DNA of 24,000 nt from positions 1,143,822 through 1,167,821 of the forward strand of contig NZ_CP129013.1 of NCBI RefSeq assembly GCF_020524035.2. Direction: 5' to 3'. Below, in pieces: positions 8,620 through 14,426 of this stretch. The notes beneath the pieces were generated by a model, which worked only from the letters and a program-made list of their open reading frames with translations, was not told where the DNA came from and made no database searches. Position 1 is the stretch's first letter; each line of letters opens with the position of its first letter. Position numbers and translations under genes: made by a program. The stretch is from Bacillus carboniphilus. GTDB taxonomy: Bacteria > Bacillota > Bacilli > Bacillales > JAIVKR01.

Positions 8620-8726
8620 TTCAATCTTCCTTACTCAACCTTTTTGTTTTATTGTACTATAAGGAGAGATTATAAATCTATCTAGCTATGAAAGGTTGTC
8701 CAAAAACTCTTCTATAACTTTTATTA

Positions 8727-8746
8727 GAGGTTGTTTAAAAAGTCAT
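8727..8746. repeat. solo MITE terminus (GAGGTTGTTTAAAAAGTCAT)
   Basis: The first 18 nt are identical to the reverse complement of the right end of the copy at 19894-20047 (GAGGTTGTTTAAAAAGTC). It is preceded by TTATTA. No partner end is detectable nearby. Confidence 0.4.
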
Positions 8747-10374: not shown

Positions 10375-10830
10375 ATGTCAGATATTATTCAAATTAAAGG
10401 AAGCGTACAGTTTGAAATCACTCTTGATCCTAGCACATGGATTTTTGATGATCGAAAGGTCGATTTATCCACTTGCTTTCAAGATCAAAATAATTTAGAC
10501 GAGATCCAATTTGAAACCGAATTGTACCGACCACCTACTGCAAAATCAGAACAAAAATTTCAAAAAGAAAAAATATTAACTGGCTCCTTTGCGATTCCGC
10601 TCGCACCTTTTTTAAAAAATAGCGAACCTAAATCAAGCGCAACTTTCGTTTCATTTCAAACAAATGATGAAAAAATAACTATACCTATTCACGATGCTGA
10701 AAAGATATTACTAGCCTTCAGTAAGGATGGAAAACCATTGAAGGATGATGGACCTGTCCATGTATACTATAAGGATGGTTCAAACCAACACTCACCTATA
10801 AAAAGGGTTGATGGGATCATTATTTCTTGA
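10375..10830 (+). CDS. ylaL: uncharacterised protein, YlaL-like by position
   Basis: 151-aa ORF with a strong RBS (GGGGAGGGG). Located between glsA and the phoH-like gene, as ylaL is in B. subtilis. No recognisable catalytic motif. Confidence 0.65.
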   Translation: MSDIIQIKGSVQFEITLDPSTWIFDDRKVDLSTCFQDQNNLDEIQFETELYRPPTAKSEQKFQKEKILTGSFAIPLAPFLKNSEPKSSATFVSFQTNDEKITIPIHDAEKILLAFSKDGKPLKDDGPVHVYYKDGSNQHSPIKRVDGIIIS

Positions 10831-10836
10831 ATATAA

Positions 10837-11184
10837 GAAAAGCGTAAGCGCCCGTTTAGCGACGCAGGTGAAAAGGTACGTCAACTAAGTACAGTCACGA
10901 CGCGCAAACTAACGGTGACGCTAGGACTTCCTGTGCATCGCCGCATGAGATAAAGGAAACACGAAAACCAGAAAGTAGATGATCTACTAACTACCGCCAC
11001 GTCCTGTGGTAACGTAGATCCACTTCCCTCCTGGAGGCGTCTCCGTTGACTTATCGTAAAGGTAATGGAACATTATCTAAAAACGCCCAAGTCATGTGGG
11101 CAACGATGATGCTAGCACGTCGTGTGCTTTGAAAGCAACACAAGACGCTGGGCAATGGAGCTAGACAACGGTGAAAACACCTTT
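10837..11184. mobile_element. 348-bp GC-rich composite intergenic repeat (type B), three degenerate ~100-bp tandem units sharing modules with the MITE family
   Basis: Candidate TATAA duplication at 10832-10836 and 11185-11189. Internal units start near 10885, 10984 and 11086 and share CTAAGTACAGTCACG / AACGRTGAYGCTAG strings with the copies at 12893-12955 and 23643-23700. I counted 31 G+C in 60 nt at 10861-10920, against AT-rich flanks. There is no ORF of 60 aa or more. Boundaries are +/- 5 bp. Confidence 0.6.
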
Positions 11185-11221
11185 TATAAAGGACAAAGTT
11201 TATACATTCTTCTTTTTTAAG

Positions 11222-11268
11222 AAAAGGGACATCTTAAAGTCTTTTTACGACTAAGATGCCCCTTTTTT
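11222..11268. terminator. bidirectional rho-independent terminator shared by ylaL (plus) and ylaK (minus)
   Basis: GGGACATCTTA (11226-11236) pairs with TAAGATGCCCC (11252-11262) at 10 of 11 positions. An inner GTC/GAC stem is present. T6 follows on the plus strand and A4 precedes. Confidence 0.7.
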
Positions 11269-12595
11269 ATAATATATCGGCTGCCAGCTGCGCTAAATTT
11301 GAACGTTCACCCTTAATTAGCCTCACATGTCCAGAAACTTTTTGCTCTTTAAACCTTTCAACAATATAGGTTAATCCATTATTATAAGCATCCAAATATG
11401 GATGATCAATTTGTTCTGGATCTCCCATTAAGACAATTTTACTTCTTTCCCCTACTCTTGTTAATATGGTTTTAACCTCATGCTTCGTTAAGTTTTGCGC
11501 TTCATCTATAATAATAAAATGGTCTGGAATACTTCTACCACGAATATACGTAAGAGCTTCAACTTCAATAGAACCCATACCAGCTAGGATCGCATCAAGC
11601 TCACCTGGCTTTTTCGTATTAAATAAATATTCTAGGTTATCATAGATTGGCTGCATCCAAGGCCTCAATTTTTCTTCCTTTTCTCCTGGAAGGTAACCTA
11701 TATCTTTTCCCATCGGTACAATAGGTCTTGCCACAACAAGTTTATTAAACTGTTGCAAATCCTCCGTCTGCATTAATCCTGCTGCTAACGCTAGCAATGT
11801 TTTTCCTGTACCTGCTTTTCCAATTAAAGTGACAAGAGGTATGTCATTTCGAAGGAGAAGCTCTAAAGCCATAGTTTGCTGGACATTTCGCGAGCGTATT
11901 CCCCAAACATGCTCTTGATTGAAAATTAATTTTTGAATATTTTCCCCTTTATCATCAACAATTCCAAGAGCAGAAGATGAACTCCCTAATACATCCTTCA
12001 TAACGATAAATTGTCTAGGAAAAAAAGTTTGCTGACTAATTTCTGAAATTTTTATATAGTTTTTTTCATAGAAGGATGTAAGTTGCTCTGTAGTTATGTA
12101 ATACTCGGAGAAGCCCGTATAAATTTGATTAGAATCGACTACACGATCACTTAAAAAATCTTCTGTTAACACCCCAATGGCATCCGCTTTCACTCTTACT
12201 AAAGTGTCTTTACTTACTAAAATAACGGGCTTGCCTCGATCTTTTCCATTCTCCTCATCCGTTAAATTTTTTGCAACAGCTAATATTCGATTATCATTAG
12301 TTTTTTCAATAAAGATTTCTTGTAAGTCATGGAAGGAGCGGTGATTTAATTCTATGCGTATCGTTCCCCCATTAGGAAGTGGAATTTTCTCATGTAATCT
12401 CCCTTTATTTCTTAATTCATCTATTAACTTTGAGATATATCGAGCATTTTTCCCTATTTCATCCATGTATCTTTTTTTTGAGTCCACCTCTTCTAAAACA
12501 ACAGCCGGGATCACAACATCATTGTCCTCAAAAGAAAAAATCGATTTTGGATCTTGTAAAAGTACGTTTGTATCTAAAACGTAAACTTTGCTCAA
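11267..12595 (-). CDS. ylaK: PhoH-like ATPase with N-terminal PIN domain (YlaK family)
   Basis: 442 aa. The N-terminus YVLDTNVLL is PIN-like. Walker A GKAGTGKT and Walker B IIIDEAQN are present. TTG start has GGAGG 7 nt upstream. Confidence 0.9.
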   Translation of the reverse strand: MSKVYVLDTNVLLQDPKSIFSFEDNDVVIPAVVLEEVDSKKRYMDEIGKNARYISKLIDELRNKGRLHEKIPLPNGGTIRIELNHRSFHDLQEIFIEKTNDNRILAVAKNLTDEENGKDRGKPVILVSKDTLVRVKADAIGVLTEDFLSDRVVDSNQIYTGFSEYYITTEQLTSFYEKNYIKISEISQQTFFPRQFIVMKDVLGSSSSALGIVDDKGENIQKLIFNQEHVWGIRSRNVQQTMALELLLRNDIPLVTLIGKAGTGKTLLALAAGLMQTEDLQQFNKLVVARPIVPMGKDIGYLPGEKEEKLRPWMQPIYDNLEYLFNTKKPGELDAILAGMGSIEVEALTYIRGRSIPDHFIIIDEAQNLTKHEVKTILTRVGERSKIVLMGDPEQIDHPYLDAYNNGLTYIVERFKEQKVSGHVRLIKGERSNLAQLAADIL

Positions 12596-12764
12596 TCTTC
12601 CGCCTCCTATACATTGTTTTAGGAAGTTAAGTCGTATTCAAAAAATCGGGAATAACTTACTCCTGCAAGTACTTGAGCAATATCCATTTACCTATATATA
12701 TGAATTTTTGAATAAAGATAGAAGGTTGTTAAGACAATAAGTATAAATCAACTATACACTTATA

Positions 12765-12971
12765 GTGCATGTTCAAAAAGTAAGGAAAAAAGGACGCTGA
12801 ATCAAAAAGCTAAAGTCCTTTGCTCACACTAGGGCGAGCATAACGTGAAGGTGTTCTTTACCTTTTCAAAGTATTTGACTATTTCAGAAGATCTACTAAG
12901 TACAGTCACGTCCTGTAACTAACGATGATGCTAGGCCATCCACGCCATCGTAGGACTTTTTGAACAAACTC
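12765..12971. mobile_element. MITE-like element, 207-bp copy
   Basis: Left module GTGCATGTTCAAAAAGTAAGGAAAAAAGGACGCTGAA and right end ...CGTAGGACTTTTTGAACAAACTC. Flanking 5-mers are TTATA (12760-12764) and TTAAA (12972-12976), 4/5 identical. Internal strings are shared with the copies at 23456 and 14291. Confidence 0.8.
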
Positions 12972-13024
12972 TTAAAGACCTCGCAGTATGACTATTACAA
13001 ATTAAGCTTGTAAAGGAGAAAAAA

Positions 13025-14183: not shown

Positions 14184-14290
14184 TTTCACACCTCCATTTC
14201 CAGTGTATAATTCTATCATAACGATTTTTCACAAATTGGTCCATTCATAATTATGAAATTTTTGGTTCCCTTTAGAATAAAACAATAGAA

Positions 14291-14409
14291 GTGCATGTTC
14301 AAAAAGCAGGGAAAGAGGATGCTGAATAGAAAAGCTGAAACCCTGTAGGTCCATCCTTAACGAAGATGCTAGGCAATCCATTCCAACGTAGGACTTTTTG
14401 AACAACCTC
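14291..14409. mobile_element. MITE-like element, minimal 119-bp copy
   Basis: Perfect TAGAA duplication (14286-14290 and 14410-14414). Left module GTGCATGTTCAAAAAGCAGGGAAAGAGGATGCTGAA and right end CGTAGGACTTTTTGAACAACCTC. Confidence 0.8.
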
Positions 14410-14426
14410 TAGAAAGGAATTTTGAA

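Follow-up and report, generated by a model that had tools for sequence, protein, structure and literature searches.

The spacer between the convergent genes ylaL and ylaK holds a block of structured repeats in a 24,000-nucleotide (nt) stretch of the Bacillus carboniphilus genome (contig NZ_CP129013.1, positions 1,143,822 to 1,167,821 of the forward strand; this whole stretch is called the window below, and coordinates count from its first letter). The ylaL-like coding sequence (10375-10830, + strand; 151 amino acids (aa) from the list of open reading frames (ORFs) and its translation) ends with TGA at 10828-10830, followed in frame by TAA at 10834-10836 (TGA-ATA-TAA). On the opposite strand, ylaK (11267-12595, - strand) encodes a protein with PIN and PhoH ATPase domains (Pfam PF13638 and PF02562), and its stop codon (11267-11269) adjoins a strong hairpin at 11222-11268. 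With an A-tract upstream and a T-tract downstream, and seen in folds of both + and - strands, this hairpin is a bidirectional intrinsic terminator which ylaL (+) and ylaK (-) have in common. The ylaL stop and the terminator were placed correctly in an earlier description made from the sequence by eye (the first-pass annotation), which also singled out the block between them (10837-11184) as rich in G+C. It has 48.9% G+C, compared with 35.2% over the whole window and roughly 35% in each flanking gene, and the count of 31 of 60 given for 10861-10920 is exact. Three degenerate units of about 100 base pairs (bp) had been proposed in the block, and the strings taken to mark them do begin at 10885, 10984, and 11086. 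These units are copies of the Bacillaceae-1 RNA motif (Rfam RF01690), a family identity that the first-pass annotation missed; the tandem arrangement itself stands, with one RF01690 match per unit.

In an Rfam scan of the window (gathering score for RF01690, 35 bits), all RF01690 matches were on the + strand and covered the full model, and no other family matched the block. The Bacillaceae-1 module has a Shine-Dalgarno (SD)-like leader (AUAAAGGAA) and three helices: P1, a stem that encloses the inner hairpin P2, and P3, a further hairpin. The loops of canonical copies carry UCCU. Unit 2 (u2, 10971-11037, + strand) is a copy of this canonical kind, matching model positions 1-67 at 56.6 bits (E=3.8e-8), with a perfect 7-bp P1 and the loops CGUCCUG and CUCCUG. 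Unit 3 (u3, 11061-11128, + strand; 44.6 bits, E=2.5e-5) retains every stem, its loops altered to GUCAU and GUCGU. At 25.0 bits, unit 1 (u1, 10869-10937, + strand) is below the gathering score and so is a decayed copy, not a threshold-passing member of the family; its P1 and P3 pair, and its first loop reads CGACGCG in place of CGUCCUG. It scores 72.9 bits with the local model R1, which was trained on u1 as well. On the criterion of RUCCU loops, UCCU is kept in three of the six array loops (the second of u1 and both of u2) and lost in the others (the first of u1 and both of u3). As placed by the covariance model, successive units start 102 and 90 nt apart. Spacer 1 (10938-10970) contains GATAAAGGAAAC at 10949-10960, a copy of the consensus 5' leader of the units, and spacer 2 (11038-11060) separates u2 from u3. 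A covariance model built from five local copies, the three units and two more carried by the interspersed elements M1 and M4 described below, finds exactly those five in the window whichever strand is searched. They occupy three differing intergenic contexts.

The units are mutually only 51-60% identical. Tandem Repeats Finder reported no repeat in the block and a blastn search with word size 7 no match within it; both are blind to the periodicity because of this divergence. Local alignments between units do score better than shuffled sequences (u1-u3, p<0.0005; u1-u2, p=0.019; u2-u3, p=0.011).

What has been kept among these diverged copies is mainly their pairing. In the five-copy alignment (u1-u3 and the M1 and M4 units; 17 pairs), 77.6% of the pair cells hold standard pairs, compared with 61.5% when columns are shuffled, and 10 of the 17 pairs show double-sided changes; none of 500 column shuffles reached the observed value on any measure. 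As a control, sliding the 3' partners by 1-3 columns reduced pairing to 26-38%. RNAalifold independently recovers the outer stem P1 and the second hairpin P3, with 9 of 11 pairs covarying; P2 is weak in the u1 and M1 units. P1 is quite a different helix in each of the three tandem units (CGUCA.C/GGUGACG, GAUCUAC/GUAGAUC, and CAUUAUC/GAUGAUG), while the single-stranded CUAAGUAC, AACG, and leader motifs are conserved, and unpaired columns are more conserved than paired ones in nine of the ten pairwise unit comparisons. The persistence of paired stems through compensatory change at such low identity points to the hairpin itself, as RNA or as single-stranded DNA, as the selected object. The block folds better than shuffled sequence on both strands (z = -4.24 for +, z = -4.76 for -). 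Counts of G-U versus A-C pairs in the copies are equal (5 to 5) and carry no strand signal, and a strand call on this basis was dropped as uninformative. No convincing covariation was seen across the five copies, compared by eye, for a pseudoknot between the AAGGA leader and a UCCU loop.

The same module occurs in a family of interspersed elements with the look of transposable elements of the miniature inverted-repeat kind (MITEs), of which the window has four, all on the + strand. M1 (~12756-12975) carries one unit at 12880-12947 (+ strand; RF01690, 21.3 bits), M2 (~14282-14414) only the 3' half of a unit, M3 (~19885-20055) none, and M4 (~23447-23772) one unit at 23627-23694 (+ strand; 42.7 bits, E=6.6e-5). 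When the four are aligned, their ends are common (GTGCATGTTCAAAAAGT... on the left, ...GGACTTTTTGAACAACCTCT on the right) and their interiors are mosaic. Each is flanked by locus-specific 4-bp direct repeats (TATA/TAAA, AGAA/AGAA, TATA/TATA, and ACAA/ACAA). That the block and these elements share modules had been noted from short strings, including the 9-mer GCTAGACAA, which does occur at 11160-11168 and at 23604; it is now evident from alignment of whole units. Alignments of block units to MITE-borne ones reach E values of 8e-9 to 1e-3 and are better than those among the block units themselves; u1 and the M1 unit, for instance, are 77% identical over 60 nt (E=8e-9), and the homology of u1 to M4 continues into spacer 1. 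Since each unit in the block is nearer to a MITE-borne unit than to its neighbors, the array is not a recent local triplication. The M1 unit, with a 5' half like u2, a 3' half like u3, and a broken P1, looks chimeric, which points to recombination among units.

Some further observations concern the elements themselves. By GC skew, the + strand on which M1-M4 and the five Bacillaceae-1 units all lie is the lagging-strand sequence. A solitary inverted copy of the MITE right end (TATTAGAGGTTGTTTAAAAAGTC) is found at 8722-8744, between ftsW and a DUF1507 gene, and no matching left end was seen near it. Copies of the inverted-repeat family also occur outside B. carboniphilus, in Oceanobacillus sp. 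CFH 90083, O. sojae, and an IMG/VR contig (L004 2945-3025, L006 9620-9825, and L132 2296-2626), so this backbone is wider than the present genome; the interiors of these copies differ, and no Bacillaceae-1 core is present in them. In the Oceanobacillus sp., an inverted-repeat element of ~80 bp lies immediately past the ylaL stop.

The ends of the block are another matter. Its left end had been read as an element terminus, a claim that probably does not hold, because it belongs to a separate 32-nt module (AAGAAAAGCGTAAGCGCCCGTTTAGCGACGCA, 10835-10866, + strand) that recurs after stop codons and ahead of terminators where there are no units. A second copy (19016-19047, + strand; 81%, E=1.5e-4) lies past the stop of an HlyIII-family gene (19012-19014) and ahead of a terminator; a third (22283-22314, + strand; 89% over the match at 22283-22309, E=6e-5) precedes a terminator-like hairpin. 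All three modules (GAAAAGCGNAAG...CCGTTTAGCG) begin 0-3 nt past an in-frame TAA on the + strand. At the 19016 and 22283 sites, the terminator follows within ~10 nt, with the lead TTTTGTAAAAAAGGCA..., whereas at ylaL the homologue of this lead is met only at ~11209-11236 (T1-T2, p=0.01; T2-T3, p=0.004). The simplest reading would be that stop, module, and terminator form a recurrent arrangement and that the array, at ~10867-11208, sits inside one copy of it; judging by its recurrence at two sites without units, the left module is more likely pre-existing 3'-end sequence than part of an element. Read in frame, the three modules give EKRKRPFSDA, EEKRKGTFNHA, and KEKRKQPFSVV. A weak similarity links the module to an internal MITE segment, TGAATAGAAAAGCTGAAGCCCTTT (p=0.01-0.03). 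The module has no stable or conserved fold (z about 0), and its candidacy as a GNRA-tetraloop hairpin was dropped for that reason.

Two other features were seen near the additional module copies. Just before the third is a possible ORF of 24 codons (MYETALIVASFATLSYFIYLTVTD, 22207-22281, stop 22279-22281) for a hydrophobic mini-protein, with a GGGGG ribosome-binding-like site 8 nt upstream. The HlyIII-family gene (18366-19014) and a DegV-family gene (17209-18061) are each broken into a pair of ORFs that overlap near 18754-18767 and 17627-17649, respectively; these apparent frameshifts could mark pseudogenes or sequencing errors.

Downstream of u3 is a tail (11129-11208, + strand) composed of a half-unit-like stretch, AAGACGCTGGGCAAT, at 11142-11156, which matches the M2 half unit (p=0.005), the 9-mer mentioned above, and a fourth leader, TATAAAGGAC, at 11185-11194; from ~11209 on, the sequence is again homologous to the other sites that combine module and terminator. 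The TATAA 5-mers that the first-pass annotation had pointed out on either side of the block are present (10832-10836 and 11185-11189). The right one, however, is the start of TATAAAGGAC, which fits the 5' leader consensus of the units (aauaAAGGAa) and has a near-copy, GATAAAGGAAAC, inside the block at 10949. On the + strand, the 24-kb window has 58 occurrences of TATAA and only four of ATAAAGGA, two of them at the TATAAAGGAC and GATAAAGGAAAC positions. To go by these motifs, the apparent duplication is probably part of a unit leader, AUAAAGGA, and the case for a target-site duplication is weak. It had also been remarked that the ends differ from the terminal inverted repeats of the MITEs, and no significant similarity was found between them: the block ends are inverted repeats neither of each other nor of the MITE ends, most inverted-repeat tests were not significant, and the whole tail has no match to the MITE ends (p=0.08, 0.43). 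The right end, AAAC-ACCTTTTATA, resembles the right end of M3 over 15 nt (p=0.011, uncorrected, one of 16 tests).

The array is specific to this lineage among the loci compared. YlaL, in which a Pfam scan matched no family, is 43-52% identical to syntenic proteins adjoining PhoH/YlaK in Aeribacillus, Metabacillus, Litchfieldia, and Oceanobacillus; for YlaK there is a 100% identical protein at NCBI, of the PhoH family and from B. carboniphilus, the runner-up being a Metabacillus protein at 81%. Measured from stop to stop, the ylaL-ylaK spacer is 436 bp in the B. carboniphilus window. The corresponding lengths are 53 bp for Metabacillus herbersteinensis, 67 bp for each of two further Metabacillus genomes, and 94 bp for Litchfieldia salsa; the first-pass annotation had expected about 80 bp at an empty site. 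RF01690 has no match in the ylaL-ylaK loci of those Metabacillus and Litchfieldia genomes. The block is thus absent from the relatives' spacers, and the array is a lineage-specific insertion and not an orthologously conserved feature. In Aeribacillus composti, the spacer (L001 10495-10772) is ~275 bp, unrelated in sequence and not G+C-rich, which suggests that spacer growth occurred independently in another lineage.

Several other identities for the block were considered and ruled out. No identical repeats or spacers of the sort found in a CRISPR array are present. A riboswitch or leader is excluded by the position of the block downstream of a gene and by the lack of an Rfam match to such a class. 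No ORF in the block exceeds 39 aa, and none has a start context, which agrees with the earlier statement that it has no ORF of at least 60 aa and excludes a small protein gene. A search for tRNA found none, nor was a transfer-messenger RNA found. An independent small RNA (sRNA) gene was set aside too, as no sigma-70-like promoter match was found within the block, or next to it on the minus strand. BLAST searches of plasmid and phage collections with the block, and of plasmids with M4, returned no match. A loose motif pattern gave more than 120 chance matches in viral contigs, none fitting the model; a stricter one found a single locus in metagenomes, with a B. carboniphilus-like core in single copy within a ~170-bp G+C-rich island.

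Taken together, these results make it probable, with moderate confidence, that the block is a passive mosaic repeat array organized like the BOX elements of Streptococcus pneumoniae and made up of three diverged Bacillaceae-1 copies plus fragments. Of the two options left by the first-pass annotation, the better fit is a recombinant array of shared hairpin modules; a second element with ends of its own was not demonstrated. The module is an optional internal cassette of the inverted-repeat-bounded, MITE-like family, whose four elements in the window hold 1, 0.5, 0, and 1 units (M1 to M4), and the ylaL array would be this internal module multiplied in the absence of the end modules, possibly through insertion or recombination of repeat modules. 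Devoid of the MITE inverted-repeat ends, it may have been inserted or have expanded in a spacer that is 50-95 bp in relatives, most likely between the recurrent 32-nt post-stop module and the shared terminator. Lying upstream of the only terminator in the ylaL sense, with no promoter-like site of its own, the array is probably transcribed as a structured 3' untranslated region (UTR) of ylaL of ~390 nt; the long 3' UTR suggested earlier thus agrees with the placement of the block, its transcription being a natural inference from that position. The repeat may be selfish or neutral, with the hairpins serving as a recognition structure for a possibly dimeric partner, and as a by-product the folded 3' end could slow 3'-to-5' decay of the ylaL mRNA, as has been proposed for BOX and for repetitive extragenic palindromic (REP) sequences.

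A number of points weigh against this interpretation. Three of the six array loops, in u1 and u3, have lost the UCCU that defines the family, making a loop-dependent function doubtful, and the even G-U to A-C count leaves the strand unassigned by pairs. Stem conservation across the five copies could partly reflect descent from diverged master copies and not selection at this locus. The window contains no transposase or partner protein. The word insertion relies on genera in which YlaK is only ~80% identical, and copies, arrays, and element ends were all judged within 24 kb of the genome.

The most serious competing explanation, although rather unlikely, is that the array is a functional multivalent RNA, within or processed from the ylaL 3' UTR, and so a regulator and not passive repeat DNA. 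With up to six UCCU-type loops and several AAGGA leaders, it could serve a dimeric RNA-binding protein as platform or sponge or, alternatively, mimic an anti-SD or SD sequence toward other mRNAs. A point in favor of such an RNA is that the second loop of u2, CUCCU, reads the same as the anti-SD core at the 3' end of 16S rRNA. The covariation of the stems, the better conservation of the single-stranded CUAAGUAC, AACG, and leader segments, and the orientation of the copies, all sense to the upstream gene, fit an RNA of this kind, as does a co-oriented stop just upstream in four of the six rows examined from the motif's published seed alignment. Weinberg et al. (2010, PMC2864571) judged the motif to be a real RNA, probably trans-acting, and its RUCCU loops to be "suggestive of binding to a homodimeric protein". 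Against this, only half of the array loops have UCCU, u1 is under the Rfam threshold, the module is optional cargo of the MITEs, the chimeric M1 copy with its broken P1 resembles decay, and the array is not conserved at the ylaL-ylaK locus of relatives. A functional minus strand is most improbable. Gardner and Eldai (2014, PMC4333381) found that the reverse complement of RF01690 matches a CsrA-binding motif, with the strand uncertain, and proposed a CsrA-binding sponge, here with AGGA-type loops; the slightly better folding of the minus strand agrees with it. The block, however, lies behind the ylaK terminator, with no promoter-like site in or beside it, GGA would be read in no more than three of the six loops, and on the minus strand alone, the pair counts are neutral as to strand, and no validation of the proposal was found in the literature searched. 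An array of the CsrB/Rsm type would have many GGA hairpin loops on the transcribed strand, and this one does not.

Unlikely as well is the other option of the first-pass annotation, a discrete second non-autonomous element of 348 bp (10837-11184), mobilized like the neighboring MITEs, bounded by ends of its own (GAAAAGCG... and ...AACACCTTT) and flanked by a 5-bp target-site duplication, TATAA. Deleting the block and one TATAA would leave 83 bp, inside the range seen in relatives, and M1-M4 have AT-rich direct repeats of a similar type; the right end is weakly like a MITE right terminus, and the left end recurs twice in the window. But these left modules stand at sites with neither units nor a matching right end, inverted repeats are lacking at the ends, the complete tail is unlike the MITE ends, and the terminator lead reappears outside the proposed element; the right TATAA belongs to a leader that is also found within the block, and the 5-mer is common. 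Finally, and as a distinctly speculative possibility, Bacillaceae-1 may be a portable cassette captured by differing MITE backbones, with TCAGCGTG-type ends in B. subtilis and B. licheniformis and GTGCATGTTCAAAAAG-type ends in B. carboniphilus, that multiplies into arrays and becomes a multivalent 3'-UTR decoy, either for a dimeric RNA-binding protein or through SD or anti-SD pairing. If so, a mobile repeat would have given rise to a Gram-positive equivalent of the CsrB-type sponges.

On the favored interpretation, a passive mosaic array, the consequence for ylaL is probably modest, a long structured 3' UTR. Of wider interest is that, within 24 kb, the double hairpin appears in two forms, as a cassette in inverted-repeat-bounded repeats and as a bare tandem triple 3' of a gene. 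With stems kept by compensatory change and loops decaying, these two forms suggest that RF01690 matches be reannotated as modules of mosaic repeats and not as sRNA genes. The locus is also a natural test case for what the hairpin binds and whether the upstream mRNA is stabilized, having a canonical unit beside two loop-mutant ones.

The Bacillaceae-1 motif was defined from 149 sequences in many gene contexts, sometimes beside rRNA operons (Weinberg et al., 2010, PMC2864571). It ranks with the more abundant sRNA families in Rfam (PMC9029176); for B. subtilis, BSGatlas has eight copies. A literature search found no paper giving it a function, and none has been assigned since 2010. The ylaL array shares with the family the leader AAGGA, P1, the CUAAG...AACG internal loop, and the two hairpins, both UCCU-looped in u2, as well as scores above the gathering threshold for u2 and u3, a Bacillaceae host, and the usual place downstream of a co-oriented gene. 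It differs in having three tandem copies 90-102 nt apart, one of them (u1) sub-threshold, and in the lack of UCCU from three of six loops. No earlier report of a tandem Bacillaceae-1 array was found in the literature searched. In Rfam the motif is entered as a stand-alone sRNA, but its behavior here is that of an interspersed-repeat module. Six seed rows in Additional file 4 of Weinberg et al. (2010), from B. licheniformis (NC_006270) and B. subtilis (NC_000964), were examined in this respect. There the motif forms part of a longer repeat that is itself conserved and has inverted termini (TCAGCGTG...CACGCTGA), and its place is just past genes of the same orientation. Two of the rows have near-identical copies of the local terminator hairpin on either side of the repeat, as would result from a duplication of the terminator upon insertion. 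The association with MITE-like repeats and terminators is therefore not peculiar to B. carboniphilus, although the backbones differ.

In organization, a close parallel is the S. pneumoniae BOX element, boxA-(boxB)n-boxC, which has been proposed to hinder 3'-to-5' exonucleases (Croucher et al., 2011, PMC3049150). In both, the end modules are conserved and the self-folding internal modules vary in number, here none in M3, half of one in M2, one each in M1 and M4, and three plus fragments in the ylaL array. BOX elements are often, and the ylaL array probably, co-transcribed in UTRs. The two are unrelated in sequence, so the analogy is one of organization only; the ylaL array lacks end modules, and its units, at 51-60% identity, are far more diverged than a recently slipped boxB array. 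A second parallel is bcr1 of the B. cereus group, a repeat described as transcribed, whose two stem-loops are maintained by compensatory changes (PMC3184786); the work of Okstad (2004), Klevan (2007), and Kristoffersen (2011) on bcr repeats is taken here from the summaries in PMC3184786, PMC6542083, and PMC3446304. As summarized there, bcr1 is likewise a Bacillaceae interspersed repeat, of ~150 bp, with short flanking direct repeats and two independent stem-loops, often located in 5' or 3' UTRs. It is reported to be specific to the B. cereus group, outside which B. carboniphilus falls, and the likeness is one of description only.

REP sequences and bacterial interspersed mosaic elements (BIMEs), clustered in enterobacterial 3' UTRs, and the CsrB/RsmZ sponges are also multi-hairpin structures, acting as exonuclease barriers or protein decoys, but have no sequence or structural homology to the ylaL array. 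Nearer at hand is an interspersed repeat of ~190 bp in B. subtilis and B. licheniformis, reportedly noted in the B. subtilis genome paper of 1997. It has, as here, a Bacillaceae-1 core in a longer repeat with inverted termini near terminators. Its termini (TCAGCGTG...) differ from those of the B. carboniphilus elements (GTGCATGTTCAAAAAG...), and its seed rows are single-copy, with no arrays. Set beside these systems, the ylaL array is no new kind of element; it is an unusual instance of a known motif family, tandem and without ends.

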